Part shown: in pieces, positions 11,894 to 48,538 of the stretch
How positions within the stretch are numbered: the stretch's first letter is position 1
How the letters are laid out: each line of letters opens with the position of its first letter
DNA from: Sedimenticola sp.
GTDB taxonomy: Bacteria; Pseudomonadota; Gammaproteobacteria; Chromatiales; Chromatiaceae
Assembly: GCA_026984735.1 (NCBI GenBank)
Contig: JALSRN010000014.1
Coordinates: forward strand, 21,405-85,404
Direction: 5' to 3'
Length of the DNA: 64,000 bases
Position numbers and translations under genes: made by a program
The notes under the pieces: model-generated
Seen by the model: the letters and a program-made list of their open reading frames with translations, nothing else
Told to the model about the DNA's origin: nothing
Database searches by the model: none

Positions 11894-12559
11894 ATGCGAA
11901 ACGGCGGCTTCACTCTCATGGAACTGCTGGTCTCCCTGGCTCTGGTGGGCATCATGACCCTCCTGCTCTACGGCGCCATGGACTTCGGCGGGCGCGCCTG
12001 GAGCAGGAGTGAAAGCCGCGCGGCGCGCGAAAATGCCATCCGACTGGTCTGGCAGCAGCTGAACGACTTTTTCTTGCAGGCGCGCCTCCCCTTCAGTGGG
12101 GAACCTCGTTCCCAAGGCCGTTTTATCTTCCGGGGCGACGAGAAGAGCGTGGAATTCGTCACTTCCATGGGGCGGGAAACAGGAGCGGGCCTCTACTTGG
12201 TGCGAATCACGCAACAGCGGCACGGCGACAGAATCGACCTGGTCCTGCGGCGCTGGTTGCTGCATCCAGAAATCGTCGCTGGGGGAGCGCCCATACCCCC
12301 ATGGATCCCACAAGATGAAGCAGATGACGGCGCCCATTCCAAAAGAGGCGAACAGCCGAGATCCAACCTCTGGTACGCCGAATCGGTACTCGCCAGCGCT
12401 CTGCTACGAGCCAATTTTTCTTTTTACACGGGCGCAAGCACCAACGGGTGGAGCAGACGGTGGAAGAGCGGGCAGAAGCCACCTCCTCTGGTCCGCCTGC
12501 AGGTGGAGGATGGGCGGGGCGCCTGGCCGGAGATGGTTTTCGAACTGCCGCCGTCATGA
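11894..12559 (+). CDS. gspJ: T2SS minor pseudopilin GspJ
   Basis: GG|FTLMELLVSL, operon position. Confidence 0.85.
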   Translation: MRNGGFTLMELLVSLALVGIMTLLLYGAMDFGGRAWSRSESRAARENAIRLVWQQLNDFFLQARLPFSGEPRSQGRFIFRGDEKSVEFVTSMGRETGAGLYLVRITQQRHGDRIDLVLRRWLLHPEIVAGGAPIPPWIPQDEADDGAHSKRGEQPRSNLWYAESVLASALLRANFSFYTGASTNGWSRRWKSGQKPPPLVRLQVEDGRGAWPEMVFELPPS

Positions 12560-13344
12560 ATCACATCTTTTCCCGAACCACCGTACCTTCCCAGGCCGGC
12601 ATCGCTCTGGTATTGGTGCTCTGGGCGGTGACATTACTCGCCCTGATGGCGACCACCTTGGGCAGAACCCAGCACGGCGAAGCGGTGATGGCCGGCAACC
12701 TGTCGGAGGAGTCGAAAGCAGAGGCGCTGATGGCGGCAGGCCTCCACTTCATGATGCTCCAGCTCGAGCGCCGCAATCTTCCGGCACCGGGCAACCCCTG
12801 GCCGGTGGACGGCAAGCTCCACCCCTGGCATTTCGCCGGCCATCGGCTCTGGATCGGCGCTCAAGCCGAATCCACCCGGCTCGACCTCAACCATGCCGAA
12901 GGCGAGGAGTTGCTGGAGCTCTTCCGCTCGAACGGACTCGATGAACTAGAGGCCAGGGCGCTTCGCGACGCCACGCTCGACTGGCGGGACGCAGACGGGG
13001 TGGCCAGGTCCAACGGCGCGGAAGACGCCGAATACCTTGCCATGGGGCGGCCGGTGGGCGCGGCCGACGCCTTTTTCCAGTCGGTCGACCAACTGATGTT
13101 GGTCAGGGGCATGACCCACGAGCTGCTGGAACGCCTGGCGCCGAAGCTCAGCGTCCACTCCCGGTGGGCTTTCCGGCTCCATGTGGAACTGGAAGCGCCG
13201 AACGGCACCCTCCACCGACAGACCATGGTGGTGGACGTGCGCCATCGCACGCCGCACGGCTACCGCATCCTCGCCCTCGATCCCCACCCGGGCGCGACCC
13301 TACCACGGGCGCGACGACAAGAAGAGTCGGAGACCGGCTCGTGA
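12556..13344 (+). CDS. gspK: T2SS minor pseudopilin GspK (short, 262 aa)
   Basis: AG|IALVLVLW, RLDLN, LDWRDAD, GAEDAEY, FQSVDQLMLVRGM. Confidence 0.85.
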   Translation: MNHIFSRTTVPSQAGIALVLVLWAVTLLALMATTLGRTQHGEAVMAGNLSEESKAEALMAAGLHFMMLQLERRNLPAPGNPWPVDGKLHPWHFAGHRLWIGAQAESTRLDLNHAEGEELLELFRSNGLDELEARALRDATLDWRDADGVARSNGAEDAEYLAMGRPVGAADAFFQSVDQLMLVRGMTHELLERLAPKLSVHSRWAFRLHVELEAPNGTLHRQTMVVDVRHRTPHGYRILALDPHPGATLPRARRQEESETGS

Positions 13345-14381
13345 GCCTCTCTGTCCCCTACCGATGGCGCTCTCTGCGCACCTGGATTCCGGCCTGCATG
13401 GAAGCAGCCGGCGGACGGCTTTTCGCCCGTTGGGTGCCGCCAGAGATGAAAATCGATATCGAAGGTCGCTCTGCCGCTCTCCGTTACCAGGAACGAAATC
13501 TCGCCGTTTCTCTCGACGATCTGAGACGGCAGATGCCGCTGTTTACGCGCCGGATCGGCAAGCGTCCTGTAAAACTCATGGTGTCCAAAAAATGGCTTCT
13601 CCATCGGCGCGTCACCCTGCCAGCAGCGGCGCGCGAGAACCTTCGGCAGGTGGTCGCCTATGAGTTGGACCGCATCAGCCCCTTCGAAAAGGACCAAGCC
13701 TGGTTCGTGCTGGAGGTGGGGGAACCAGGCGGTCACGCCAACAGCCGGATCGTGGTGGACCTCTGGCTGCTGCCGCGCCAACGCCTGCAACCCTGGATGG
13801 ATGCCTTGCGCGAGGCCGGCCTGGGAGTGGGCGCCGTAGTCGCGGAAGGTAGGGAACGCCACGACTTCCTGCCGCCCGAATCACGTGCCCGTCTCCCCTG
13901 GAAGCATCGGATCGCTCGGGCCCTGCCCCTGTTCCTCGCGTTGTTGGCCCTGGCTGCCCTCTTGCTTCTTCCCCTTGGGCGGCTCCACCACCAGATCGAC
14001 CGGCTCACGCTCAAAGAGGACAGGATCCAGCGGGAATATGAACAAACCGTAAAATTGCAAAAGCGGCTCGATTCCAGACTGGCCGATCTGCAACAGACCG
14101 CCAAGCGCTGGGCTGCGGCCCCCGAGCCGCTGGAGATCCTGGGAGCTCTGAGCCGTCTGCTGCCCGACGACACTTATCTGCAACAACTCGAAATCAAGGG
14201 CAGGGAGATCCGTTTGAGGGGAGTCTCTTCGCAAGCCACTGCCCTCATCGCCCTCCTGGAAGAGGCGCCGGGATTCGAGCATCCCCGCTTCCTCTCACCG
14301 CTCACCCGAAAGGAAAAACAGGAACTGTTTCAGTTGACCGTAACCTACGCCCCAAGCCGCCTGCGGGAGAAGTCTCGATGA
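13341..14381 (+). CDS. gspL: T2SS GspL (PilN-like C-terminal domain)
   Basis: GTGA overlap with gspK; LPAAARENLRQVVAYELDRISPF, one TM segment, LSRLLPDDTYLQQLEI. Confidence 0.8.
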   Translation: MSLSVPYRWRSLRTWIPACMEAAGGRLFARWVPPEMKIDIEGRSAALRYQERNLAVSLDDLRRQMPLFTRRIGKRPVKLMVSKKWLLHRRVTLPAAARENLRQVVAYELDRISPFEKDQAWFVLEVGEPGGHANSRIVVDLWLLPRQRLQPWMDALREAGLGVGAVVAEGRERHDFLPPESRARLPWKHRIARALPLFLALLALAALLLLPLGRLHHQIDRLTLKEDRIQREYEQTVKLQKRLDSRLADLQQTAKRWAAAPEPLEILGALSRLLPDDTYLQQLEIKGREIRLRGVSSQATALIALLEEAPGFEHPRFLSPLTRKEKQELFQLTVTYAPSRLREKSR

Positions 14382-35126: not shown

Positions 35127-37934
35127 TCACTGGTCGGGAATAACCGGATCGCCCGCTCCGATCAAGAACCTCCCTCGCAAATGGAGCCCGTCCTGAACCT
35201 TGTCGAAGGTTATATAACGTCCTCCTTCTTTGAGAAGATCGAACGTCGGTTGCCCGTTCTCGGGGGTCACGAGCACGCGGGGAACCGAATTTTCGACATC
35301 CATTTGCACGTAGAGACGGTACGTCCACCGATCCAAGCCGCCGAAGTCGTCCCTCTCTTCCACCATCAACGCCACGCTCACCGCCTCGCCCGCGTGCATT
35401 TTCAGGTTGCAGCCGGGGGAAGGCGGGCCGACGGGAATGTAACCTCCGTCTTCCACATAGTAATTCACCGGCCCGTTGGCGGAACACGTCATCCGTCTCA
35501 TCGCGTCGAAATCGCCACGGGACGGCCCATCGACCAGGCTGAACCCTAGCCACGAGATCTCTCCCCCTCCACCGGTGAGGTCGTCGTCCCCGGATTCCAC
35601 GGCCTCGATGGGCTCGTAAAGGTGAAGCGCGACGTTGTAACCCGCCACCGGTTTCGTACGATAGACCCTCTCGTCATAGATCGTTCCATTGAGGCGGGCC
35701 AACTGCACCACAACGTCGGCTCCCCAGGGAACGCCCTGGGCGCCCTCTTTCCGATAAGGCAGCGCGAATTTCGCCCAATACTCGCCCGACGATCTTTGCC
35801 GAATGGAAAAGGGCGTCGCCCTGGCCACCACTCTCCCGGAAACGATCGCGCGCGCCTCGACGCGGCGCAAACGCTCGCGCCATTCTGCCCCGGCGGGAGC
35901 GGATGCCTCGATGTACAAGACGTATTCTTCCCGGGTAAAGGAACCAATATGCGAAATCCTCGGATTCGCAAACGACAGCGTGGGAGAGTCCCCTCTGGCG
36001 TCGCGCACACCCGTGGCGCCGCCAGCCAGATCCAAGCGAACGAAGCGCCGATAGGAGAGGTCGTCGAATTCCACGTGGACCCTATTGGTCCCACGCTCCC
36101 CTCCGCAGTCGTATTCCAGATAGGCGTGCGGCCACCGCCGCGGCAACACGACCCTGCCGCGATAGGCGACTTCTCCGCCGGAGACCCGACGCTCTCTGCC
36201 AATCGCCGCCATGCCACCGGCAGCGGAAAATCCATGGACCGCAGCCGGCGCTCCGCTGCGATCGGCGGTGGGGTACTGGAGAACCCGGATCGCCGACCAG
36301 TCGTCGGCGGGACAGCGGCGATCGTCGGCCCGCTTGAGCACCTCGAAGTCCAGCACGAATCGAGCTGGGCAGACGGAACGCATTCCCGCCGCCAAAACCT
36401 CTCCTCTCTCATTGAGCAGTTCCACCGCGATTTTCTTGTCGCGCATGGTCTTGAGTGGATCGGAAGCCAGATTCCCGGGAACGTCGTTCGGCAACGTGAA
36501 CCGAATTTCGGAATCGGAAATCTGCAAGCCTGCGGGCGACAGCGAGGTTCCCCCGCCCGCCAGCACCTCGCCGGCGGTGCCGGCGCGCACCCGTACAAAG
36601 CGTACTCCCCCGAAATTGCGCCCTTTCACGACCAAAGGGGAATGGCGCGCCGCGTCCAGATTGACGCAGGAGCCGGTCCAAGGAGTGTTGACGGACTCTT
36701 CCGAATCCGAAGCGAAGCCGGTGATCGCCGCCTGCGCGCTCTTGGCGACCCGCTCCCGGATGCCCATCGCCTCCGACGCGGCGCTCACGATGCCAGGATG
36801 CCCCGTCCGGCAAAGCGAGCGGTCCATCGCGGAAAGACCGGAATCATCGCCTTGGAGATGCCATTCGACCTCCACGGCGAGGCACTCTCCTTCGGCCAGA
36901 TGAACCCCCATCCAGTAGTCACCTCCCTCATCGCCGGCCTCGCCCAAGGCCACGCGTCGCTCCTCGCTGACCCCGTGGGCAGGCAGGCCGGAAAAATCCA
37001 TGGCATAAGCGCTTGCCGTTCCCTCTTTGTTCAATCGCACCTGCAGCAAGTCGGCCAACCGGTCGCTGGCGTTTCGCAAGCGGACGACCACGACGGGGGG
37101 CGCGTCGTTTTCGATCCGCAGCGTCTCGAAAAGGATATCTCCCTCCCGAATGAACCGAGCTCCCTTGGGAACCCCTCTGGGCGCCTCCGTCATCTTTTCG
37201 ACGGGGATGCGCGGCTTGGTGCCGCTTTTGATTCCCAAATCGGACGACAAGGAAGGCAGGCCGCCCTTGGGAACCACCGCCGTTTCGGCCCGTTTTTTCG
37301 TCCCGCGCCGACCGGGAAGGCCCAGATCCGACGGCAGCTTCGGCACGGCGGGAAAAACATGACGCTTTTTGGCCGGCGCTTCCCCTTTCTTGCCGGAACC
37401 GGCGACGGAAGACGAGAAGGAAGGCGCCGCGCCGCCGACGCCCGCCGCCGGCAGTTTCGGAACCTTCATCAAGGTCTTTTCCTTCGTTTTCGGCGAAACG
37501 GAAGGCGACGGAAAATTGGGCACGGCCGGCACTTTCGGAATCATGCCGGCGGCCGTGGGCGCTTTGACCGTGGACGGCGACGGGAAGGCGTTCGGCCGGG
37601 GGGCGACCGCCGGAACTTTACCGGGCTTCGGAAAGGCGGCTCGCGGCGCCGCCGTCGCCGATGCCCCCGTTACCGGCTTTTGCGCCGCGGACGGAAGCGA
37701 ACTTCCTTTTTCGAAACCGGAAAGGGGAAAACCGGCGGGCCGCTCGGGCGGCGTCTTCCCGACGGCGTCTTCCTTCCTTTTCGTGGGCGGCACCGCGAAA
37801 GAGCCGGCCTTGTCGATGATGGATTTGTTCGGCAGAACCGGAAACCCTCCTTGATCGGCCGAAACGGCCGCCATGGAGAAGATGACCGCCCAAGCAAACG
37901 CCGGCAGCGCCAGTTTCAAGCCCGATGCGTTCAT
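35127..37934 (-). CDS. Large secreted hypothetical protein (935 aa) with Pro/Lys-rich stalk and beta-sandwich domains
   Basis: Strong GAGGAGGT RBS, Sec signal, ~260-aa P/K/A/S low-complexity region, then Ig/IPT-like segments. Confidence 0.75.
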   Translation of the reverse strand: MNASGLKLALPAFAWAVIFSMAAVSADQGGFPVLPNKSIIDKAGSFAVPPTKRKEDAVGKTPPERPAGFPLSGFEKGSSLPSAAQKPVTGASATAAPRAAFPKPGKVPAVAPRPNAFPSPSTVKAPTAAGMIPKVPAVPNFPSPSVSPKTKEKTLMKVPKLPAAGVGGAAPSFSSSVAGSGKKGEAPAKKRHVFPAVPKLPSDLGLPGRRGTKKRAETAVVPKGGLPSLSSDLGIKSGTKPRIPVEKMTEAPRGVPKGARFIREGDILFETLRIENDAPPVVVVRLRNASDRLADLLQVRLNKEGTASAYAMDFSGLPAHGVSEERRVALGEAGDEGGDYWMGVHLAEGECLAVEVEWHLQGDDSGLSAMDRSLCRTGHPGIVSAASEAMGIRERVAKSAQAAITGFASDSEESVNTPWTGSCVNLDAARHSPLVVKGRNFGGVRFVRVRAGTAGEVLAGGGTSLSPAGLQISDSEIRFTLPNDVPGNLASDPLKTMRDKKIAVELLNERGEVLAAGMRSVCPARFVLDFEVLKRADDRRCPADDWSAIRVLQYPTADRSGAPAAVHGFSAAGGMAAIGRERRVSGGEVAYRGRVVLPRRWPHAYLEYDCGGERGTNRVHVEFDDLSYRRFVRLDLAGGATGVRDARGDSPTLSFANPRISHIGSFTREEYVLYIEASAPAGAEWRERLRRVEARAIVSGRVVARATPFSIRQRSSGEYWAKFALPYRKEGAQGVPWGADVVVQLARLNGTIYDERVYRTKPVAGYNVALHLYEPIEAVESGDDDLTGGGGEISWLGFSLVDGPSRGDFDAMRRMTCSANGPVNYYVEDGGYIPVGPPSPGCNLKMHAGEAVSVALMVEERDDFGGLDRWTYRLYVQMDVENSVPRVLVTPENGQPTFDLLKEGGRYITFDKVQDGLHLRGRFLIGAGDPVIPDQ

Positions 37935-37967
37935 GATTCTTCACCTCCTCTTCATCTTTTTTCTTTG

Positions 37968-37994
37968 TGTCGGCCCATCGCTCCTTCCGGTTCA
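37968..37994 (-). promoter_or_regulatory. Putative ECF sigma promoter P4
   Basis: TGAACC-ggaaggagcgatgggc-CGACA, 34 bp upstream of the 935-aa gene. Confidence 0.75.
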
Positions 37995-38023
37995 ACGACG
38001 AGAACGGCGACTCACAAACCGGC

Positions 38024-39157
38024 TCACTCGACGGTGACTTGGTACTCGCAACGGGCGTTGTTGGTTTCATCGCTTTCCGGCACGCCGTTGTAGGGGTCCA
38101 CCGTCAGGCAGAGCCAGTAACGTCCCGGCGGCACGCCTCCAACCCGCAAGTTCCGTTGCTCCCGCGGGATCCTCATGCGCTCGTCGGCGGCCAGCGGCGG
38201 CGTGCGGTCGATCTGCCGCACCACGTAAACCCCGGGGGCATAACGTCCCCGTCGGGGCAGTTCCACTCCGTTGGTTTTCGAAAGCAGCACATGGACTCGA
38301 TATCCGCAGCGGCCGTCGTAACCTGGCGCGGGCCCGGTCCCTTCGTTCAGCACCAAGATATTGAAGCGGTGAGGTTCGCCTTTTCTCAAGCGCGTGGGCG
38401 CTTTGACCGCCGCCGCCTCGAGGTCAGCCCGTCCGTTCCCCGGGCAAGAGGAAAGCTCGGGCGCCCGGTTCCCCACCCGCCCTCTCGTCGCCGGCTTTTT
38501 CCGGGGTTTGGAGGCGGCGCCAGCCGTGCCGGACTGGGGATCGCGAAAGATCCGGCCCAGCAGATCCTCCACCACTCTTCGCCTCGACGACCGCCGGGAG
38601 GAGCTTGCCGCATCTTGAGAGTCTCGGCGCGCCGTCCTCTTTTTATCCGCTGCCGCCACCAGCAGCTCTTTGCAGGCCACGTTGTTTCGTTCGTTCCGCT
38701 CCTTATGGTGATCCAGCGGATCCACCACGCCGCACATCCACCAACGCCCGGGGGGGATATCCCGCGGTATCTTGACCATCCGATGGGTCTGCCATCTCCC
38801 CGACGACGCCAGCTTCGATCCGGCGCGGAACACCCCGTTTCGCAACACGCCATCTTCCCGAAAATGGGAGGAGGAGCGCATGGAAAGGGGAATGGGCACC
38901 CGCCTGTCTCGGGAGATGACCAGCGCGACCATGACGGACCTCATACGACGGGAATTCGAATTTTCCTTCGCGGAGCTTCGAAAGCCGCGGTTCGACACCT
39001 TCACCCGCACCCCCAGCCGCTCGCCGGGCCGGGCGCGGAAACGGTCATTCTGCACCGACAAGACCAGATCCAGGCGGGCCGCGAAAACCGGCGTGGTCGC
39101 GGACACCGAAAGGAAGACCACGAGAACGCCCGCGCCAAACGCTTTCAGCATGGACAT
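38024..39157 (-). CDS. Secreted tandem CARDB-domain protein
   Basis: GGAGG RBS, signal peptide, two CARDB-type ends VDPLDHHKERNERNN and VDPYNGVPESDETNN. Confidence 0.8.
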   Translation of the reverse strand: MSMLKAFGAGVLVVFLSVSATTPVFAARLDLVLSVQNDRFRARPGERLGVRVKVSNRGFRSSAKENSNSRRMRSVMVALVISRDRRVPIPLSMRSSSHFREDGVLRNGVFRAGSKLASSGRWQTHRMVKIPRDIPPGRWWMCGVVDPLDHHKERNERNNVACKELLVAAADKKRTARRDSQDAASSSRRSSRRRVVEDLLGRIFRDPQSGTAGAASKPRKKPATRGRVGNRAPELSSCPGNGRADLEAAAVKAPTRLRKGEPHRFNILVLNEGTGPAPGYDGRCGYRVHVLLSKTNGVELPRRGRYAPGVYVVRQIDRTPPLAADERMRIPREQRNLRVGGVPPGRYWLCLTVDPYNGVPESDETNNARCEYQVTVE

Positions 39158-39285
39158 GATCACTTCCTCCCCCATCCTTGTTTTCTCGAAAATGCAATCG
39201 TGTGGAGATTCAGAAAACGCGCCGTTTGCGCCTTTTCAAGATTTCCATCCCTGGCCCTCCGAGCCAGATCGCGGCTCCGGCGGCG

Positions 39286-41370
39286 CTACCGGGACGGATC
39301 CGGTTGACACACCTCTTCCGCGCACGGTCCCAGGCCGAAAACGGTTCCGAACGCGATGCCGATGGTGGGTTCGTTGGCGTTGACGCCTTGCCTGAACTTG
39401 CAGCCCGCCCCCCCGTTTCCAGCGCCATCCGTGCCGGGCATCGGACGAGCGGTCGGAGAACCACAGCCGCTGGCCATCGCGGTGAGTTCCTCGATCGTAG
39501 GGGGTTCGGTGCGCTCATGCGCGCCGTGGGCCGCGCATTCCACCTCCTTTCCCGCCTTTCCCGCGCCCCCGAACCAGGAGGTCGCGGGGTTGGAAGGCGC
39601 GTTCTCGCCACCGGGGGTTTCTTCCGTCATGCCGCCCGCCTCAGCCGCGGGCGAGGGCTGCGAGGCGGGATTTTCACAACGGGAACGGGCCTCTTCCAGA
39701 AGGCGATCCGCCTGCCCTGCATAGAGCGCTTGCGCCAGACAAGCGTCGCATTGCAGTTGCGCGACGCTGCGCCCTCCGCCCAGGACATCCGGTCCTCGAA
39801 GAGGATTTTCACCTGGCCCCTGGCCTTTTCGACTGCCATCGATCACCAGGTCGCCTTTCACTCTTTTCCAATATTCGGGGGACCGTTTTTTGGAATCTGG
39901 CAGCTTGCTGCGCTCGCCCAGGGGATCGGGACCGTTGCAAAAAGCAGACTGGGATCCGGCGGCGCATGCGGCCCTCACGAGGCTTTCACTCGGCCGCAAT
40001 CCGCTCCTTCGCGCGCTCTCCACCGTGCGGTGTCCCTGGCTTCGCAAATATTTCTCGAAATCGTGCAGCGCCTGGTCCGCCTCGTTGACATAATGGTCTC
40101 TGTAGTAATTCATGGCTTCTCCGACCAAGAAATCGCCGATATCCTTGGCGGTTTTGGCGGCCCCCAACAAACGTGCCGCCCCCTCTCCAACCAACCATGC
40201 CAACAGGTCCGACATGCCGTCCTCGGCCCACCCGCCGGGAATGCTGCGGCTGCGGCAGGCTTTCTCTTCCAGAACACGCCGGCATCTGGGGCTCACCTGC
40301 AGCGGATGCCGCCGACCGGATCCAATGCCCCCATTTTCCCTTCCGCCGCCCGACTTGCCCGAGCACGGATCGAAGCCTTCGACCTTCATGAAAAAGCCGC
40401 CGACTCCGCTCTCCGCCTTTGCGCCTTCGTTTCGTCCGAAGGCGCCCCTCAAGGCCCCGCATGCGCTGCGGCCTTCCCACAAATCTTCCAGGAACCTCCA
40501 GGCGGAAGGGGTGTCCTCGATCCACCAAGTGATGCTGTTTCCTTTTTCAATCACCCGCGCCTCCACCACGCCGTCGCCATCCGGGTCGTAATTGACCGCA
40601 ACGGCAGGCCTGGTGACCAGAGTACCGACGAGCCGGCCGTCCACGATCAAAGGCAGCCACTCTTCATCGCCGCTTTTGTACAACCATCGGTCCTCCCGCC
40701 GAACCTTGCGGTCCGTGGGCAGCGGTTTCCGCACCAGCAGCAGAGCGTACACCCGCCCCCGCCGCCGCATTCCGCCCGAACCGTCGATCTCCAGCAGCTG
40801 GTAGGGTCGCCGCTCGCCCTTTCCCAATCGGAGCAACTGGTCTCTGGAAAGAGGCAGGTCGGCCAACGATGAAAGCGACGTCAAAGCGCTTGCATCCACG
40901 CCCGCGGGCACCGCCTCCCTTCCAGATTTTCCGAAAGGAGGGGGCAAATAGGGTGTCCGTCGCACTCGATGCGCGGGCTTTTCCCGCCCATCGACACTTT
41001 TCGGAACGGAGGTTGCCCCCGCCGGTCGTCCTTCTTTTTCGTCCGTTTCCGGGCGGGGGAGCGTCACCGTTTTTCCCGAACCTCGCCCCGCTTCCCCGCC
41101 GAGCGGCCCCGCTCCCTTCCGATTCCGGTCCGCCGCACCGGCGGTCGGGGCCTGCGTTTGCCTCCTTTCCCCCATATTCATTCCATGCGTGAGCGTCATC
41201 GGAGCGGAAGGCCGAGCCTCCCCGCCGGATGGGCCGCTTTTCTCGACGACCGGACGCACGGAGAAAAATGGGGGCACTTTCATGGCTTCGTCCTTCATCA
41301 CCACGGGATCGTCCCCTCCCGAAGCCAACCCCCATGCGACCGTCAAAGCGAAATACAGAGTTCTCTTCAT
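39286..41370 (-). CDS. Secreted Cys-rich hypothetical protein (694 aa)
   Basis: Signal peptide MKRTLYFALTVAWGLA, low-complexity linker, DPDGDG motif, 14 Cys in the C-terminal part. Confidence 0.7.
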   Translation of the reverse strand: MKRTLYFALTVAWGLASGGDDPVVMKDEAMKVPPFFSVRPVVEKSGPSGGEARPSAPMTLTHGMNMGERRQTQAPTAGAADRNRKGAGPLGGEAGRGSGKTVTLPRPETDEKEGRPAGATSVPKSVDGREKPAHRVRRTPYLPPPFGKSGREAVPAGVDASALTSLSSLADLPLSRDQLLRLGKGERRPYQLLEIDGSGGMRRRGRVYALLLVRKPLPTDRKVRREDRWLYKSGDEEWLPLIVDGRLVGTLVTRPAVAVNYDPDGDGVVEARVIEKGNSITWWIEDTPSAWRFLEDLWEGRSACGALRGAFGRNEGAKAESGVGGFFMKVEGFDPCSGKSGGGRENGGIGSGRRHPLQVSPRCRRVLEEKACRSRSIPGGWAEDGMSDLLAWLVGEGAARLLGAAKTAKDIGDFLVGEAMNYYRDHYVNEADQALHDFEKYLRSQGHRTVESARRSGLRPSESLVRAACAAGSQSAFCNGPDPLGERSKLPDSKKRSPEYWKRVKGDLVIDGSRKGQGPGENPLRGPDVLGGGRSVAQLQCDACLAQALYAGQADRLLEEARSRCENPASQPSPAAEAGGMTEETPGGENAPSNPATSWFGGAGKAGKEVECAAHGAHERTEPPTIEELTAMASGCGSPTARPMPGTDGAGNGGAGCKFRQGVNANEPTIGIAFGTVFGLGPCAEEVCQPDPSR

Positions 41371-41428
41371 CCCTTATTCCCTCCCGACACGCCGTCCGAT
41401 CCCGGTTGCGGTCTTCATTCAGGGGATG

Positions 41429-41455
41429 GGTCGTCGATTCTCCGGCCGGGGTTCA
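41429..41455 (-). promoter_or_regulatory. Putative ECF sigma promoter P3
   Basis: TGAACC-ccggccggagaatcga-CGACC, 59 bp upstream of the 694-aa gene. Confidence 0.75.
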
Positions 41456-41581
41456 CGCCTCCATCGGTTTTCCCGCATCGGCGGCCATCCAACCCTTCCT
41501 CAGCTCCGGCAACCCGTCATCGCCGAAAAGAGCGCCAGGTATCGACGAATCCTCGAAGCGGGGAACGGGGCCGGTCTGCCG

Positions 41582-42532
41582 TCACTGTTCGACCAATTCC
41601 ACCCGCCGGTTTTTGGCGCGCCCCTCTTCCGTGGCGTTGCTCGCCACTGGCGCCACCGGCCCCACGCCCACCGGCTTCAGCCGCCTGGCCGGAATGCCGT
41701 GCCTTCCCACGAGCGCCCGAGTCACGGCGGCCGCCCTTCTTTTGGAGAGCGCCAGGTTGTAGTCGTACTCCCCGGTATTGTCCGTGTGCCCCACGACGTA
41801 GAGCCGGACGCGAGGATGGGCCTTGAGGTATTTGGCGATCTCCGACAAAGTGGCATTCGATTCGGGCTTGAGATGGTCGCTATCGAGATCGAAGGTGATT
41901 CCATAGAGAGCCACATGGCCTTTGGCACCGATCTCCGAAGCCATCTTTTCAGCGCCCACCACATCCAGTCGCGCGTCCAACGGACGCGATTCCACCACGC
42001 GCAGATAGGCCCAGTACCGGTCGCCCCAGGTGGTGTGATGGATGAAACTGTAAAGCGCCACCACCGCCTCCTTGCCTCGCAGAGCGCCTTTGGCCACGAG
42101 AACGTAGATGGGGCGGCTCAAGGGCGGAAACTCTTCGTGAAGCTTGGCCTCGCTTTTCGACACTCCGAAAAAACCTTTGTCGTCTTCATATTCGAACAAC
42201 ACCTGAAAGCCTTTTTCTTCCAGATTTCTCCGATATATCATCGCCGCTCCTTCGGCGCCCACGTCCTTGGGCAGCCAATAGTCGATCTTCCAGATCTCGC
42301 CGGACATCCGCTCCGTCTTCCCCACGAGCCCTTTTCTTTCCGACACGGGAAAAGTGATCGAACCGGCTCTTTTGTGCACATATTTTCCGATGATCGATCC
42401 GGGAACCCTCCCCAATCGAGGGTGGTCGGCGCTTCCGGCCACATCCTTACGCGGCGGCTTGGGCGCTGCCACCGCCGACGCGAAAGCCGCCACCAACAAC
42501 GCCGTCATCGTCAATTTGAACCACTGAATCAT
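41582..42532 (-). CDS. OmpA-like peptidoglycan-binding domain protein (DUF4892-like N-terminus)
   Basis: Signal peptide; GHTDNTG..YNLALSKRRA..NRRVEL; no transmembrane barrel. Confidence 0.88.
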   Translation of the reverse strand: MIQWFKLTMTALLVAAFASAVAAPKPPRKDVAGSADHPRLGRVPGSIIGKYVHKRAGSITFPVSERKGLVGKTERMSGEIWKIDYWLPKDVGAEGAAMIYRRNLEEKGFQVLFEYEDDKGFFGVSKSEAKLHEEFPPLSRPIYVLVAKGALRGKEAVVALYSFIHHTTWGDRYWAYLRVVESRPLDARLDVVGAEKMASEIGAKGHVALYGITFDLDSDHLKPESNATLSEIAKYLKAHPRVRLYVVGHTDNTGEYDYNLALSKRRAAAVTRALVGRHGIPARRLKPVGVGPVAPVASNATEEGRAKNRRVELVEQ

Positions 42533-42577
42533 CGCTCTCCTCATCTTCCGTTCTCCGGTTCTTCGATTTTTGTCCGT

Positions 42578-44038
42578 TTACGATCCGTCGCCGCAACCTG
42601 GGTGACGGAGAATCCCATGGCCGTACACCGGATCCACGCCCGGTTTTCCCGCATCCGACGCGCTTTCCAGCAATTCCTCCAACGCTGAAACGGTTCCCCG
42701 GCTCTCCTCCAGCGCCAGGGCGGCGGCGACGAAAGGAGCGGCGTACGAGGTTCCGCTGAGATAACGACCACCTCGCCGACCCGTCGGCAGCCAAAGATCC
42801 ACGCCCGGAGCGGCGAGGGTCACATGGGAGCCCCGGTTCGCCAACCGCCATGCCCGCCCTTCGGCATCCACCGCCGTGACGCCCACCACTCCGTCATAGG
42901 CCGCCGGATAGACCGGTTCCATCTTTCCATCGTTTCCCGCAGCCGCCACGATCTGCAATCCCTTGCGCCGGGCCAACAACAACGCGAGTTCCAGCAGCCG
43001 GTTCGGCGGCCCGCCGATGCTCATCACCCCCAGTCGCACGTTCCGGCGTACCAACCAATCCAATGCGGCCACCATTTTTTCGGCGGTGGCGTCCACAATG
43101 TCGGCCTCACGGTTGCGCAGCACCACGGCAAGATGCAGTTCCGCGCCGGGAAGCAAGCCGCCGAAGCCCGAATCGCCGCGCCCGACCAACAGACCCGCTA
43201 TCGCCGTGGCGTGATCCGCGGGCGCCGGTCGTTCGGCCGCTCCAAGAAAAGAGAACGATTCGATGGCAGCCCCCCGCAAAGCAGGATGGGCTCTTTCGAC
43301 GGGTCCATCCACCAAGCCGATACGGGCGTCCCGGCCACAGTCTGAAGTGCTGTTCCAGCCGATCAAGCGCTGCCCGTAGATCAAGGCTTTCCCTCCCATG
43401 GGTCGGTAACGGTGGTTCACGTCCATCCACACGTCGGGAGAGGTTTGCCTCAGCGCCACCAGTAACGCTTTTTCATGGCCCTCCGGCACCCGAAAAACGC
43501 TCAATATCATTCCCAGCCCGTGCAACACCTTGCGACGGCGCAGACGATAACCGCTTTGTCTCATGGCTTGCGCCACGGCTTTGGCCACCTCGAGCTCCCC
43601 GCTCGCAATGAGGATCTCGCCCGGTTCGATTCCCCGGTCCACGGTCGCCGCCAACGACGACGGCAAAGGAGGCAGGGACGGTAGAGACCGATCGAGAAAA
43701 TCCCCCCGCGACAAAGCATTCCGCCGAAAAACAGGCTGTCCGCTCGCTCCAGGCTCGGGCGCCTTCCATTCTCCAGACGTCTCCCCGCCGCTGGAACCGT
43801 CGGCCGCCGGCGCATCGGAAGAGGACTGGCCACCCTCCTCCTGATCCGCAACGTAAAATCGCGCATGCGCGGATTTCCAACGGGAGGAGGCGTCGAACAC
43901 CGTTTCCCTGTTTCCAACCGCGACCATCCATTGCCCTCGATCTCCACGGGCATCGGAGGAAACTCGGCCACCTCCTTCCGCGGCCGCCAGCGAAGCGGCC
44001 AGGAGCACCAGCGCTAACGATCCGACCGCCACTTTCAT
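42578..44038 (-). CDS. S8 subtilisin-like serine protease
   Basis: Signal peptide, prodomain, triad LVDG / DHATAIAG / SGTSYAAP, oxyanion AAAGN. Confidence 0.92.
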   Translation of the reverse strand: MKVAVGSLALVLLAASLAAAEGGGRVSSDARGDRGQWMVAVGNRETVFDASSRWKSAHARFYVADQEEGGQSSSDAPAADGSSGGETSGEWKAPEPGASGQPVFRRNALSRGDFLDRSLPSLPPLPSSLAATVDRGIEPGEILIASGELEVAKAVAQAMRQSGYRLRRRKVLHGLGMILSVFRVPEGHEKALLVALRQTSPDVWMDVNHRYRPMGGKALIYGQRLIGWNSTSDCGRDARIGLVDGPVERAHPALRGAAIESFSFLGAAERPAPADHATAIAGLLVGRGDSGFGGLLPGAELHLAVVLRNREADIVDATAEKMVAALDWLVRRNVRLGVMSIGGPPNRLLELALLLARRKGLQIVAAAGNDGKMEPVYPAAYDGVVGVTAVDAEGRAWRLANRGSHVTLAAPGVDLWLPTGRRGGRYLSGTSYAAPFVAAALALEESRGTVSALEELLESASDAGKPGVDPVYGHGILRHPGCGDGS

Positions 44039-44670
44039 GGCCCTCTCACCTCTTTCACGATATCCGACGACACGAGCCGGTTTCGGACGCGGGCGACCGC
44101 CCCTCTTTTGGCGGAGACGATCCGCAGGCGGTATACGCCCAAGGCGCCCGGCCCTCCGGCAAACTCAAGACCCGCCTGCTGCAACAGACGGCGGATCCGA
44201 CCTTCCGTCGCGTCTTGGCGGAAACGAACCTGGAACACGACCTCCCCTCTTCCTCCTTCCTCTCCCAAAGGCCGATAGAGCGCCGGCGAAGAGGAGCGTT
44301 GGTGGAAAAGCACGCCCAGAATCGCCCCTTCGACGACCACCGCCAAGCTCGCCGCCATGGCCAGCCGCCGCCACCAAACCGGATTCCGCTTCACGCCCGC
44401 CCTTCCTTCTTCTTCGATCCGCTCGCGCCGTATGCGATTTTGCAATTCCTCCCACACCTTCTCGTCCGGCTTCCGGTCCCTCCATTTCTCCTTCGCTCCC
44501 CGACACACCGCCTGGAGAAAACGGTACTCGAGCCGGCATCGCTCGCAGTTCTCGATGTGGACGAGCACCCGGCGTAGTTCAGGTTCTTTCAAAGAGCCAT
44601 TCGCCAGCAAGGGCAACAAATCGTCCGGATGCGTTCCCCCGTTCATTTGCCGATTCGATCGATTCGTCAT
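44035..44670 (-). CDS. Zinc-finger (ZAS, zf-HC2) anti-sigma factor
   Basis: HIENCERC (HxxxCxxC), one TM, periplasmic domain; ATGA-coupled to the S8 gene; start could be 44646. Confidence 0.88.
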   Translation of the reverse strand: MTNRSNRQMNGGTHPDDLLPLLANGSLKEPELRRVLVHIENCERCRLEYRFLQAVCRGAKEKWRDRKPDEKVWEELQNRIRRERIEEEGRAGVKRNPVWWRRLAMAASLAVVVEGAILGVLFHQRSSSPALYRPLGEEGGRGEVVFQVRFRQDATEGRIRRLLQQAGLEFAGGPGALGVYRLRIVSAKRGAVARVRNRLVSSDIVKEVRGP

Positions 44671-44720
44671 TCCAATGCCCCGCAATGGCCCTAACGGCCG
44701 AGATTCGGTATCCACCCTTC

Positions 44721-44747
44721 AGTCGAGCGAAAAGACAAAAGGGTTCA
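44721..44747 (-). promoter_or_regulatory. Putative ECF sigma promoter P2
   Basis: TGAACC-cttttgtcttttcgct-CGACT; the -35 element overlaps the ECF stop codon. Confidence 0.75.
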
Positions 44748-45329
44748 TTGACGAGGGAGGCCGTCGAGTTGCAGGCAAGCTTTGATCTTGCGTCTGGCAT
44801 GGTGGATCCGGGTCTTGACCGTACCTTCGGGACAATCCAGGATCGCCGCGATCTCTCCATAGGGGAGGTCCTCGAAGAAAGCCAGGTAGACCACCTGTCG
44901 CATGGGGGAAGGGAGCCTTTCGATGCAAGCCTCGACCCGGTCCAGGTCCTGGCTCGCCTCAACCGCCTTCTCCGTCATCGAAGAGAGGGAGGAGGCTTCA
45001 TCGGCCGTTATCGAATCCAAAGCGTCTTCGCCGGCATCCCCTCCCTCTTCGCACCACCGGCGACGGCGCAATTTATCCAGAATCTTGTGGTGGGTGATCC
45101 CCAGCAGCCATGTGGCCACCGCCGATTTACCCTGATAACGCGCGGCGCTTCCCCGCCACACCTCGAAGAAAACCTCGTTGACCACATCCGCCGCATCGGC
45201 TTCCACCCCCAATCTGGACAAGGCAAAACGGTAGACGCGGGCGGAGAACCGTTCATAAAACCGCTGGAGCGCCTGCTCGTCGCCCGCGCTGATTCTCCGA
45301 AGCAATACCCGTTCAGGGTCCTCCGCCAT
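44745..45329 (-). CDS. ECF sigma-70 factor
   Basis: GGAGGT RBS; ADVVNEVFFEVW, STWL-like ATWLLGITHHK, IAAILDCPEGTVKTRIHHAR. Confidence 0.93.
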   Translation of the reverse strand: MAEDPERVLLRRISAGDEQALQRFYERFSARVYRFALSRLGVEADAADVVNEVFFEVWRGSAARYQGKSAVATWLLGITHHKILDKLRRRRWCEEGGDAGEDALDSITADEASSLSSMTEKAVEASQDLDRVEACIERLPSPMRQVVYLAFFEDLPYGEIAAILDCPEGTVKTRIHHARRKIKACLQLDGLPRQ

Positions 45330-46551
45330 TGCCCCCACCTCCGGTCCCGCCGCCACGCCAGAACCGCCTCCATTCGCTCGCCGCGATGGTTCTTCCTTCC
45401 GCGTCGAAGGCGACCACCCGCCACCATCCCAGGCCGTCCTTCATGCGCTCCATGACCAACGGCGAGAAAACGGCTTTGGATTGTCCACCCGCCACCAACT
45501 GACCCGCCTGAATGGGGGATTCGTCAGCGGAGCGGTTGACCACCGTTCCGAACGCACCCTCCTCCGCGCCGCGGTACTCGATGCGATAGGCCGCCGCCCC
45601 TTCCACCGCGCTCCATTCGAGGGAATCCCCTTTCCCCAAACGAGCGCCCGGCCCCGGCGTCTTGATGACGATGCGCTGGGGAATCGGAAGGCGGTTACCA
45701 TCCCCTTGAACGAAGTAGCGCAAAATCAGCCCTTCGCCATCGATCGCGGGCTCGAGCACGCGGAGCCGCACAAGATAAAGACCGGAAACATGCGTGGGCA
45801 AAAGAGGGCCGTTCAAAACAGCACGCCCATTTCCGTCGAGATATCGATGTACGGTCAGCAAAGGACGATAAACCGGCGTGCCCTGGGTGCTGCCCGGCTC
45901 GGCCACTTCCCAGCGGGCTCGCAGCAACCCACGTCCATCGTACTGGACTTCCGCATGGATCCCCAGTTGCGTTCCCGCCGCCACCACGCGGTTGACGGCA
46001 CCATCGTCGAAACGCATGCGGATGAAAGAGAGCGCAAATTCATTGCTGCCGATGCCGCCGCTCTGGATGGGCAGCTCCAGCCGGGCCTGGAATCGGGAAG
46101 GAGACAACGATTCTCCGAAGATTCGACACAAGGCGACGACATTGGCACCCCTCCGGCGGGCGGCCACCACCAAGGCCGGAGGAATGGCCACCTTTTCGCT
46201 CAAAGTGGCGGCGCCCCCATACGGGGGGGCGCCGTTCAACTGAAAAGTGCCGGAAACCGTGGTGGGAAAGGCTTGCAAAGGAGCGCAACCATTGCCCGAA
46301 GGGATGCCGATCACCAGCTGATTCGAAAAAACCCGATCGACGCGAAGATTCGGAGGCGCTTTGAAAGAGACGTTCACACTCCACCGCAACCGCACATCGT
46401 TCACCCTGTTCTGAAACACCAGCGCTGGATCGGACGTACCGACCGCCACGTCGATGTCGGCCTCCGCGGTCGCAAACCACGACACGGCCAGAACCGACAA
46501 GAGCCATGCAATTCTCGCCTTTTTCGAAGCTCTTTCACTCGCCCATGCCAT
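45313..46551 (-). CDS. Exported hypothetical protein with Ig/Fn3-like domains (412 aa)
   Basis: Signal peptide, beta-rich domains, Fn3-like LEWSAVEGAAAYRIEY..WWRVVAFD; overlaps both neighbours. Confidence 0.7.
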   Translation of the reverse strand: MAWASERASKKARIAWLLSVLAVSWFATAEADIDVAVGTSDPALVFQNRVNDVRLRWSVNVSFKAPPNLRVDRVFSNQLVIGIPSGNGCAPLQAFPTTVSGTFQLNGAPPYGGAATLSEKVAIPPALVVAARRRGANVVALCRIFGESLSPSRFQARLELPIQSGGIGSNEFALSFIRMRFDDGAVNRVVAAGTQLGIHAEVQYDGRGLLRARWEVAEPGSTQGTPVYRPLLTVHRYLDGNGRAVLNGPLLPTHVSGLYLVRLRVLEPAIDGEGLILRYFVQGDGNRLPIPQRIVIKTPGPGARLGKGDSLEWSAVEGAAAYRIEYRGAEEGAFGTVVNRSADESPIQAGQLVAGGQSKAVFSPLVMERMKDGLGWWRVVAFDAEGRTIAASEWRRFWRGGGTGGGGNGGGP

Positions 46552-48538
46552 AACCGACCCTCACACCCATGTAGAGTTGCCAATCGTTCTCGTTTCCTGC
46601 ACCGCTTTCCCATCGCTGATGCACGCCGCTGAGGCTCAGCGCAACGTCGGGGCGCCCTTCCTTCGGCGAGAACAGCGTCCAGGAAATCCATCCCGAAACG
46701 ATCACGCTTTTTTCATCCAGAGAGTCGGCCTCACGCCGGTTACGGTTCAACATGGGCGTGACGCCCATGGACAATCTACCGTCCATGATTCCCGACAACG
46801 TAACGGGCAACTGGTAGTTTTCGGTTATGGTTCGATCGCCGCCGCCGTCGTATCGCGTCACATCCCTGGACAACTGCGGCTGGAATATGAGGCGGTTTTC
46901 CAAGAACCCCAACGCATAACCGAGCGACCAGCCGTTGGTGCGGCTATCCGCGTGCACGCCGGTGAAATCCTCGTTCCGCGCCGTGGTGAGGCGAAGATCG
47001 CCCGTGCCTCCGAACAGGGCGAAGGAGAGGCGCCCTCCCAGAGTGCGCGTGGAGTCGTTCGCGAGCGGGTAGGGATAGCCCAGCGGACGGGTCACCGGGC
47101 GCCCACGCACACGACTTCCATCCAAGCCTACCGAGGTAACGAAGCCCGCCAGCGGCCGATCGAATCCATAGGAGAGATCCAGGCGCAGATCGTCGAGGCG
47201 CGAGGTGGGAAACGACTCCACCTCGTCCACATTGTTTTCAACCCTTCTGAACGAGGCGCCGGCTTGCAGCCCTCCCCGAGCGATGCCGAGACTGAATTGC
47301 GCCGCCTTTTGATCGCTCTGCTGGGCCGGGTTCATCAGGCTGTAGTAATAAGTGCCGATGCGGCCGACAGAAACTTTGAAGGTCCAGAGCAAGGGAGTGG
47401 CCGAAGAGGAATTCAGCTGTCCATCCAGCGCCATCCCCAACAGCCAGGCGTCGTCATTCACATCGTCCATCAAGGTGCCGGAAGCATCGCCATTCCAGCG
47501 CGTTCGCGCATATTCTCCATGCAGCTTCAGCTTACCTTCGAAAAGCTGGCTCGAGCCGGAGAACACGATTCCCCGCCCCTTTTGCCGATATTCCGCTCCG
47601 TAGCTCCCTTCTCCGCCCAGAGTGCCCTCTCCACCGTAAGCCATGGCTTGCAGCACCAGCCGTTCGGGATGTTCCTCCAACGGGAAAAGAGTGAACGCCC
47701 CCCCTGCAAGACGGTTTTTCGGATCGGTCACCCCGAGACCATGCTGAAAGCCACTTTCGCTATCCGGTCGACTCATGAAGGCGGAGAAACGGTAACGCCG
47801 GCGATCCCGAACGCCCAGATCGACCTGAATTCCGCGGTAACTGGAGCCGGCGCTGAGCAGGCTCCCGGCGAGGGGAGAGAAATGGCCCACCTTGGCGCCG
47901 ATGGTTCCGCGCTCGAGGTTGAGCAGATAATTGCTCAGCTCCAAGCGCCGCCGTGCCGCCGAACCGTTTCCTCCGCTGCTGTAGCCCAGATCCATGTGCG
48001 CGTCCGCACGCCACTCGCCGCCACCGGCGGCGCCCTCCAGGCGCAAACTCCCATTCCCGCTCCACTCTTTTCCCTGCTCTTTCCAGGCGTCGGTGGCATC
48101 CAGCCTGCGCGCGGCGGTAAGCTCCGCCGCCACATGTCCCCTCGCCTCCCGAAACAACCGCGAATACCGAACCTCCAACTGCCAAACGCCCCGTTCTTCC
48201 ACGCTTCCATCCAGCGCGTACTCCACCACTCTCAGTTCGTGCCTCCCCGGTGACAACGGTTCCACGGGCCGATAGACCACGTGATCCGTTTCCCGCGCCA
48301 CCATCCCCGTCACGTCCACGCCATCGAGTTCCAGCGCAAGACGCGCCAACAGACTTGCCGGCCAGTCGCGGGGAATCCGGATGCGGATGGCGTCCCGCCC
48401 TCCACGCCACCCTTTTTCCGGCGCTTCGAGCGCGAGTCCTTGGGAGGAGGAAGAGAGCGAGCCGAAGGAAGGCCCGAAAAAGAACAGTAGCAGCAACGGC
48501 GCCAGCAGCGTACGCCACAAACGAGAGGTTTCCATCAC
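46535..48538 (-). CDS. Predicted outer-membrane beta-barrel with N-terminal Ig-like domain (667 aa)
   Basis: Signal peptide, alternating amphipathic G/S/aromatic strands over ~500 aa, terminal strand WQLYMGVRVGY. Confidence 0.7.
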   Translation of the reverse strand: MMETSRLWRTLLAPLLLLFFFGPSFGSLSSSSQGLALEAPEKGWRGGRDAIRIRIPRDWPASLLARLALELDGVDVTGMVARETDHVVYRPVEPLSPGRHELRVVEYALDGSVEERGVWQLEVRYSRLFREARGHVAAELTAARRLDATDAWKEQGKEWSGNGSLRLEGAAGGGEWRADAHMDLGYSSGGNGSAARRRLELSNYLLNLERGTIGAKVGHFSPLAGSLLSAGSSYRGIQVDLGVRDRRRYRFSAFMSRPDSESGFQHGLGVTDPKNRLAGGAFTLFPLEEHPERLVLQAMAYGGEGTLGGEGSYGAEYRQKGRGIVFSGSSQLFEGKLKLHGEYARTRWNGDASGTLMDDVNDDAWLLGMALDGQLNSSSATPLLWTFKVSVGRIGTYYYSLMNPAQQSDQKAAQFSLGIARGGLQAGASFRRVENNVDEVESFPTSRLDDLRLDLSYGFDRPLAGFVTSVGLDGSRVRGRPVTRPLGYPYPLANDSTRTLGGRLSFALFGGTGDLRLTTARNEDFTGVHADSRTNGWSLGYALGFLENRLIFQPQLSRDVTRYDGGGDRTITENYQLPVTLSGIMDGRLSMGVTPMLNRNRREADSLDEKSVIVSGWISWTLFSPKEGRPDVALSLSGVHQRWESGAGNENDWQLYMGVRVGYGMGE
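46723..46749 (-). promoter_or_regulatory. Putative internal ECF sigma promoter P1
   Basis: TGAACC-gtaaccggcgtgaggc-CGACT inside the barrel gene, 172 bp upstream of the 412-aa/ECF genes. Confidence 0.6.

Follow-up and report, generated by a model that had tools for sequence, protein, structure and literature searches.

Locus organization

The window analyzed here is a stretch of 64,000 nucleotides from a Sedimenticola sp. genome (GCA_026984735.1, contig JALSRN010000014.1). On its minus strand it carries a tight run of genes, bounded upstream by a Nudix hydrolase gene, that encode, in this order, a predicted large outer-membrane β-barrel protein (P0001), a partner protein with immunoglobulin (Ig)-like domains (P0002), an extracytoplasmic function (ECF) sigma factor, an anti-sigma factor and a secreted S8 protease (P0003). 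P0001 and P0002 form an obligate, translationally coupled pair, which is the main subject of this report. The coordinates of all features are given in Table 1.

Table 1 Features of the barrel/partner locus, in window coordinates.
Feature	Position	Strand	Basis or remark
P0001, outer-membrane barrel protein gene	46535..48538	(-)	open reading frame, translation, AlphaFold2 model
P0001 Sec-type signal peptide, ~residues 1-27 to 33, no lipobox	48440..48538	(-)	sequence; AlphaFold2
P0001 Ig-like β-sandwich N-domain, residues ~35-125	48164..48436	(-)	AlphaFold2 strands 36-123
P0001 predicted transmembrane β-barrel, residues 133-664, ~26 strands, plug-less	46547..48142	(-)	DSSP elements
ECF-type motif in barrel gene	46724..46749	(-)	172 bp upstream of partner ATG
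P0002, partner protein gene, 412 residues	45313..46551	(-)	translation, AlphaFold2 model, Foldseek
P0002 domain D1	46063-46461	(-)	AlphaFold2
P0002 domain D2, most conserved	45706-46035	(-)	AlphaFold2, conservation
P0002 domain D3, fn3-like	45355-45666	(-)	AlphaFold2
ECF sigma factor gene	44745..45356	(-)	Pfam Sigma70_r2, Sigma70_r4_2, Sigma70_ECF; TIGR02937
Second ECF-type motif, just upstream of anti-sigma gene	44722..44747	(-)	motif scan
zf-HC2 anti-sigma factor gene	44035..44715	(-)	Pfam zf-HC2 1.4e-5; NCBIfam anti-sigma 4e-11
P0003, secreted S8 subtilisin-like protease gene	42578..44038	(-)	Pfam Peptidase_S8 1e-22
Variable tail of the locus, four genes	35127..42544	(-)	Pfam/NCBIfam and homology searches
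OmpA-like protein	41582-42544	(-)	variable tail
ECF-type motif preceding P0012	41430-41455	(-)	motif scan
P0012, secreted, 694 residues	39286-41370	(-)	variable tail
P0168, secreted, 383 residues, CARDB domain	38024-39175	(-)	variable tail
ECF-type motif preceding P0167	37969-37994	(-)	motif scan
P0167, secreted, 935 residues	35127-37934	(-)	variable tail

The barrel protein P0001

P0001 can be read as 667 residues from a GTG at position 48538 or as 666 residues from an ATG at position 48535, one codon inside. The ATG has the better placed ribosome-binding site (GAGGGA), the database copy of the protein (666 residues) begins with it, and it is the likely true start. The protein was modelled with AlphaFold2 from an eight-sequence alignment, with a mean predicted local distance difference test score (pLDDT) of 76 and a predicted template modelling (TM) score of 0.62. 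The model is composed of a signal helix (residues 4–21 helical, at low pLDDT), a β-sandwich at residues 36–123 and, between residues 133 and 664, 26 long strands by DSSP count, or 24–26 if strand breaks are allowed for. The hairpins follow one another unbroken along this whole segment, the chain ends three residues past the last strand, and the model contains neither a plug nor a helical or C-terminal domain. Long (11, 8, 13, 17, 11, 9, 15, 9, 11...) and short (4, 2, 6, 8, 4, 7, 2, 3, 2...) connections alternate between the strands, the usual pattern of outer-membrane proteins that have their N-terminus in the periplasm, and this agrees with a predicted periplasmic N-domain. The last strand is aromatic, as in outer-membrane proteins (WQLYMGVRVGY), and the C-termini of the relatives are alike. 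P0001 has the generic features of a substrate of the β-barrel assembly machinery (BAM), namely a Sec signal, an even number of antiparallel amphipathic strands and an aromatic last strand. The model shows it as a Sec-exported, BAM-type β-barrel protein with about 26 predicted strands, no plug and a conserved Ig-like N-domain of about 90 residues.

Known families gave no name to this protein. P0001 matched no Pfam or NCBIfam family at E≤0.1, TonB_dep_Rec, Plug, POTRA, Usher, LptD and MtrB_PioB included, and neither P0001 nor P0002 matched a PADLOC model or a PDB sequence. Identification by sequence was consequently rejected, the Pfam, NCBIfam, PADLOC and PDB-sequence profile searches being empty or at chance level; the proteins of the whole cassette returned only generic subtilase and MotB-domain matches among the anti-phage defence models of PADLOC. 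Ten distant barrel relatives received no Pfam assignment either (no Usher or PapD profile), with weak OMP_b-brl matches in two of them. At the level of structure, Foldseek against the PDB returned only generic large barrels at 10–12% identity. The best TM-score was obtained with MtrB of the Mtr complex (6r2q_B, 0.47/0.48) and the lowest E-values with the ushers FimD and PapC (1e-8 to 1e-7, TM-scores 0.26–0.37), and OccK/OprD porins and TonB-dependent transporters align to the model in part only.

Conservation was measured over 65 diverse members of the barrel family, counting the columns conserved at ≥80%. The N-domain is the most conserved region of the protein, with 17 such columns out of 91 versus 33 out of 528 in the barrel proper. 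Its motif, LELDGxDVT...PLxxGxHxLRxVEY..DG..E...W..EVR.S..FRE, holds many invariant acidic residues (E70, D72, D75) together with H100, R103, E115 and W119. In the barrel region, the conserved positions cluster in four of the longer connections (258–280, 340–352, 395–412 and 432–450). Such conservation is unusual for porin loops and points to an inward fold of these connections or to contact with a partner.

The partner protein P0002

P0002 was modelled at a pLDDT of 81.5 as a signal peptide of the signal peptidase I (SPI) type (AEA|D), three β-sandwiches (residues 31–163, 173–282 and 296–399) and a Gly-rich tail. The third sandwich, D3, carries an fn3-like W...Y.IE pattern. D2 is conserved at 24 of its 110 columns (≥80%) and contains a basic motif, LVRLR..EP. 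The protein matched no Pfam or NCBIfam family at E≤0.1, and its Foldseek matches are generic Ig arrays (macroglobulin MG domains, PrgB, RbmA). It has two Cys in total and no CXXCH motif. A lipobox is absent from 24 of 25 partners, the exception being doubtful, and the signal peptides are of the SPI type. Sequence and model show P0002 as soluble, exported by Sec and built of three Ig/fn3-like domains. Its domains are not homologous to the barrel N-domain (hhalign probability 5%), and an apparent BLAST link between the barrel and partner families contained no direct barrel–partner match in the rows checked.

The original prediction, made from the sequence alone, had described this pair in terms that hold up well. 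The two reading frames lie on the minus strand and overlap by 17 bp (46535–46551), and the quoted N-domain stretch LELDGVDVT...PLSPGRHELRV falls at residues 69–104, within the modelled sandwich. The lack of a recognizable TonB box, plug, POTRA or usher signature agrees with the empty family searches and with the plug-less model. Two findings named in advance as fatal to the proposal, a non-barrel fold and a match to a known porin, did not materialize, the porins aligning only partially (TMq 0.21–0.27). The 412-residue partner, announced as a multi-Ig/Fn3 protein, has that architecture in the model.

The barrel and its partner form a constant unit

Hidden Markov models for the barrel, the partner, the sigma factor, the anti-sigma factor and the S8 protease were run over all loci gathered. 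A full-length partner homologue lies directly behind the barrel gene, on the same strand, in all 29 independent loci with readable downstream DNA, in which the identity of the barrel to P0001 goes down to ~23–28%. The two genes are joined by an overlap of 17 bp or 4 bp or stand a few bases apart. This pairing is far beyond chance. The family can be recognized by a protein of ~650–700 residues, made up of the N-domain with its LELDGxDVT...GxHxLR motif and a barrel, with a three-sandwich protein of ~350–440 residues encoded immediately behind it, and P0001 and P0002 conform to this description.

The settings in which the pair is found differ. In type A, which comprises 17 of the 26 loci with enough downstream DNA, the window included, the order of barrel, partner, ECF sigma factor, zf-HC2 anti-sigma factor and S8 protease is fixed. 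In type B (five loci: L018, L037, L038, L040 and L043), the pair is followed by a giant signal-peptide protein of ~1,850–2,000 residues with Ig/TIG-like domains and, in four of the five loci, by an fn3 protein of ~650–800 residues. Four more loci (L019, L031, L039 and L041) have the pair with neither of these extensions. In nine loci, then, the ECF module is absent, so the pair has a function independent of that module. The pair is modular, found with the ECF/S8 switch, with giant proteins or alone. The maximum-likelihood barrel tree has unresolved deep nodes and does not resolve the number of origins of these elaborations.

Several observations were made on individual loci. The type-B giant proteins (L018 11369-16933, L037 13117-19116, L038 12824-18742 and L040 12863-18838) combine a Pro-rich linker and Ig/TIG-like domains with a Cys-containing C-terminal motif, …GGCPPGHI[ND]VG[IL]QVLPSL…, the bulk of the sequence bearing no Pfam name; the fn3 protein follows those of L037, L038, L040 and L043. 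The barrel and partner frames are fragmented in L043 (9818-13092) and L040 (9863-12017), both from long-contig metagenome-assembled genomes (MAGs), and are either pseudogenes or products of assembly indel errors. In L028, from a Gammaproteobacteria MAG, two partner-family genes of 423 and 296 residues stand in tandem between barrel and sigma (11895-13166 and 13163-14053). The pair-only locus L019 adjoins a sulfatase. In three metagenome loci (L001 8022-9659, L003 7508-9727 and L004 456-2675), the immediate upstream neighbours of the barrel gene are divergently oriented mercury-resistance genes (merA-like reductase, HMA, MerT). A secreted protein of ~420–480 residues with an ECF-type motif of its own is encoded upstream of the barrel in L045 (G206) and L046 (G210), and a comparable one after S8 in G023 (L013 4212-5483); the two upstream copies are 34% identical to each other and 22% identical to the G023 copy (E 8e-5). 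The cassette may include this protein as a sixth, semi-conserved component.

Family size and distribution

An exhaustive profile search with the barrel returned 767 representative clusters (50% identity) at E≤1e-3, 248 of them at E≤1e-30; the members listed are nearly all 640–700 residues long and aligned end to end. A word-indexed homologue search had found far fewer, namely seven barrel and five partner relatives, and the same kind of search with the 65-sequence barrel profile gave the same eight proteins again. Among named genome records, the family is present in MAGs of Sedimenticola, Chromatiales, Thiohalobacter, Ectothiorhodospiraceae and Alteromonadaceae, and in MAGs labelled Zeta-, Alpha- and Deltaproteobacteria. 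It was detected in one of 19 further genomes in the genus, in one of 17 genomes from other genera of the same taxonomic family and in five of 400 genomes sampled across the phylum (~1%). The barrel family is an accessory one with a patchy distribution. We found no paper on it, nor any on an ECF group that occurs together with an S8 protease and a barrel. Barrel and partner constitute a sizeable unnamed family with no studied member, and the finding is real and out of the ordinary.

One further ORF matches the barrel profile (E 1.6e-37) in L044 (2-2077, contig JBHIBK010000032.1), from a MAG labelled Thermoplasmata archaeon. Its tblastn alignment covers the N-domain alone, at 42% identity, and it represents either a mis-binning or a copy of the N-domain that stands alone or is fused to something else.

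A predicted promoter embedded in the barrel gene

The ECF-type motif TGAACC-N16-CGAC has four exact matches in the window versus 0.26 expected, all on the minus strand and within this locus. In related loci it recurs at three syntenic positions: within the 3' end of the barrel gene, ahead of the anti-sigma gene and behind S8. The internal copy spans barrel codons L597-N598-R599...A604-D605 in a fixed register, in which (C/T)TG-AAC-C.. encodes Leu-Asn-Arg/Gln (597–599) and ..C-GAC encodes x-Asp (604–605). This register is held in eight type-A loci plus L017, and the loci with the motif at the same codon position include the window, L001, L003, L005, L017, L026, L028 and L030. Because both the DNA motif and the LN(R/Q) peptide are missing there from the barrels of type-B and pair-only loci, the local protein sequence of the barrel appears to have been shaped by the putative promoter. 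A promoter lying within conserved barrel codons would make a clean natural case of promoter/codon dual coding.

The sigma gene overlaps the 3' end of the partner gene, for which reason the two are probably co-transcribed and most likely make up one autoregulated operon, presumably driven by the predicted internal promoter. The region of 126 bp upstream of the barrel gene in the window contains no ECF motif, and a consensus scan found no sigma-70 promoter upstream of the barrel gene. In some relatives, an ECF motif is present upstream of the barrel or of the gene for a secreted protein of ~470 residues that precedes it. The motif positions point to ECF-type control of the partner and not, in the window, of the barrel, so that the embedded promoter would separate their expression.

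Neighbouring genes

Behind the partner and the sigma factor, the anti-sigma protein has zf-HC2 as its sole Pfam match, and its gene and that of P0003 overlap by 4 bp. The S8 protease is found at the same syntenic position in 17 loci. The four genes beyond it form a variable tail whose proteins have no homologues encoded downstream in other loci. P0012, P0168 and P0167 have minimal or no family assignment, and the variable-tail proteins are candidate products of the ECF regulon. The gene for the OmpA-like, peptidoglycan-binding protein sits directly behind S8 and has no promoter motif of its own; among the loci examined, such a gene occupies the post-S8 position in the window genome only.

A common downstream cargo was considered and rejected, as a shared C-terminal domain is common to L001, L003 and L005 only and is undetected in the window proteins. 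No significant resemblance was found between P0012 and the proteins encoded up- and downstream in L003 and L005.

Proposed function of the pair

To our knowledge, barrels of 22–36 strands are never empty, and every solved one has an occupant in its lumen. Such occupants are LptE in LptD, MtrA in MtrB, the plugs of ushers and TonB-dependent transporters, and PorV or a plug protein in SprA, and the 24-strand lumen of the ushers FimD and PapC passes folded Ig-like pilins. A plug-less barrel of the size predicted for P0001 cannot stay open, so the partner most likely docks on the N-domain and occupies the lumen. We infer as the most likely function that P0001 and P0002 together build an outer-membrane conduit or anchor of two components, comparable to ushers, LptDE or MtrAB and serving secreted proteins, and give this a little less than an even chance. 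The partner would dock on the conserved N-domain and sit in, or thread through, the barrel, whose lumen of 24–26 strands would have room for an Ig domain in its folded state. Together, the two proteins would make up a gated conduit or anchor by which secreted proteins reach the cell surface. Its candidate clients would be the neighbouring giant Ig-array protein in type B, and the S8 protease together with the variable ECF-controlled secreted proteins in type A; the partner itself is possibly the displayed element. In type A, activation of the sigma factor would raise the partner, the sigma and anti-sigma factors, S8 and the secreted proteins against a pre-existing barrel.

Besides the modelled structures, the empty family searches, the obligate pairing, the link to a secreted S8 protease in 17 loci, the enriched and position-conserved promoter motif and the lack of lipoproteins among the partners, further observations are consistent with this proposal. 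The candidate interfaces, the barrel N-domain and partner domain 2, are where conservation is highest. The presence of a giant secreted Ig-array protein behind the pair in five distant loci fits an export or anchoring role. Finally, the best fold similarities of P0001 are to protein-enclosing barrels (MtrB by TM-score, FimD at E 1e-8). A broader version, which we regard as possible but doubtful, would make the pair the core of a new export or surface-assembly pathway of the outer membrane, usher-like yet evolutionarily independent, that moves folded Ig-domain proteins (giant Ig arrays, or subtilases and their substrates) and in which, in most members, the ECF/anti-sigma/S8 switch tunes the supply of the periplasmic component via the internal promoter.

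Other observations weigh against an export or anchoring role. The strand count comes from a single model of moderate confidence, in which the first half of the barrel has a pLDDT of 50–80, and the structural likenesses are generic, all with TM-scores <0.5 at the low identities given above. A dedicated cargo is not universal, because four loci (L019, L031, L039 and L041) carry the pair with no adjacent secreted protein. In type A, the genes beyond S8 do encode secreted proteins, which vary by locus and are related in small groups only. The lack of an ECF motif upstream of the barrel gene in the window also means that the barrel is regulated apart from its supposed clients.

These results bear directly on the original prediction of a novel export or anchoring pair for the downstream cargo. 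Its first half stands, the two genes being an obligate pair of an unnamed family, and export or anchoring stays our leading hypothesis. Its second half was too specific: the genes directly downstream encode the ECF sigma factor, the anti-sigma factor and S8, the secreted proteins further on differ between loci and no cargo is conserved, and by the embedded promoter the partner would belong transcriptionally to the sigma operon.

The main rival is an envelope sensor modelled on the TonB-dependent transducers of the FecA-FecR-FecI type, in which the barrel would sense a cue in the outer membrane or outside the cell and relay it via its N-domain and the Ig partner to S8 and the anti-sigma factor, freeing the ECF sigma factor. 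The fixed order that ties the pair to sigma, anti-sigma and S8 in 17 of 26 loci would suit such a relay, as would the high conservation of the N-domain, the place of the partner as first gene of a putative autoregulated sigma operon and the predicted independent expression of the barrel, as for a standing sensor. We nevertheless consider it unlikely: nine loci do without the ECF module, five of these pair the barrel with giant secreted proteins, a plug-less barrel of 26 strands is too large for a pure sensor, and the hallmarks of a transducer are missing, with no TonB box, plug or STN domain and an anti-sigma factor of the zf-HC2 type, not FecR.

A channel for the uptake of a bulky solute or polymer, with the Ig protein as a periplasmic or surface binding or adaptor protein and no export of proteins, has in our view only a slim chance. 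It could draw on the Foldseek matches to OccK/OprD channels and TonB-dependent transporters and on the existence of pair-only loci, one of them (L019) beside the sulfatase. Those matches, however, are partial and to 18-strand proteins, an energized uptake would call for a plug or a TonB box, conservation is seen in loops that usually vary among porins, and secreted proteins and a regulator of the envelope-stress type recur beside the pair.

A divergent chaperone-usher system polymerizing Ig-fold subunits into a surface fibre, with P0002 as chaperone or subunit, is highly improbable: FimD and PapC head the Foldseek matches by E-value, an N-terminal periplasmic domain precedes a barrel of 24–26 predicted strands beside an Ig-fold partner, and a CfaB pilin fusion is among the matches of P0002, but the usher TM-scores are low, no Usher, PapD_N, PapD_C or fimbrial Pfam family matches at E≤0.1, the barrel has no mid-barrel plug or C-terminal domains, the partner has three complete sandwiches and no genes for small pilin-like subunits lie nearby.

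Comparison with known systems

Very large plug-less barrels are few, and each one solved (LptD, MtrB, the ushers, SprA) has defined a distinct envelope machine. The present family comprises hundreds of clusters, is nameless, has an obligate Ig partner and recurs beside giant secreted proteins or a sigma/anti-sigma/protease switch. Should it prove to be a translocon, proteins would have one more way through the outer membrane than is known today; as a sensor, it would stand for a kind of cell-surface signalling that does without TonB. P0001 was compared with the usher, MtrB/PioB, LptD, TonB-dependent and porin families and fell outside each of them. With the OprD/OccK and general porins, which have 16–18 strands, the structural alignments are partial and no Pfam porin family matches.

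The signalling systems of the FecA-FecR-FecI type resemble the type-A loci in that an ECF sigma/anti-sigma pair is encoded next to a barrel that has an additional periplasmic domain at its N-terminus, and proteolysis of the anti-sigma factor is expected in both. They differ in the domains of the transducer, as Plug (PF07715), TonB_dep_Rec (PF00593), STN (PF07660) and a TonB box were not detected in P0001, and in the anti-sigma factor; the cassette described here adds an S8 protease and an Ig partner. Furthermore, its predicted sigma-dependent promoter would drive the partner and not the barrel, and the pair also exists without the sigma factor.

The chaperone-usher systems (FimD/PapC with FimC/PapD) share with the pair a large barrel, of 24 strands in ushers and ~26 here, behind a periplasmic N-terminal β-domain, as well as an Ig-fold periplasmic partner encoded by an adjacent gene and a lumen wide enough, as modelled for P0001, for a folded Ig domain. 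In contrast, P0001 and P0002 have no matches to Usher (PF00577) or PapD (PF00345, PF02753), and the identity is 11–12%. Ushers have ~850 residues versus ~670 in the barrel protein, and they possess a plug inserted in the barrel and two C-terminal periplasmic domains, neither of which is seen in the model. The chaperones are two-lobed, whereas P0002 reaches ~400 residues with its three complete sandwiches. Finally, chaperone-usher operons carry pilin genes, while no genes for small fimbrial subunits are found near the barrel loci examined.

In MtrAB and PioAB, as we propose for the pair described here, a plug-less barrel of 26 strands and ~650–700 residues sheathes a soluble periplasmic partner encoded next door. 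The proteins themselves are different: no protein of the locus matches MtrB_PioB (PF11854), for which the search of the whole genome gave only an 11-bit match on another contig, MtrB lacks an Ig-like N-domain, and the haem partner of the MtrA type has its counterpart in an Ig array without CXXCH.

LptD–LptE differs from the pair in sequence, P0001 having no OstA or LptD (PF04453) match and the canonical LptD of this genome being encoded on contig C54; in the partner, since LptE is a lipoprotein and the barrel-family partner a soluble SPI-type protein; and in distribution, the barrel/partner module being accessory, rare (~1% of genomes) and not essential. What the two would have in common is the general plan: a 26-strand barrel, an N-terminal periplasmic β-domain and a lumen filled by a separately encoded partner, as we propose for P0001 and P0002.

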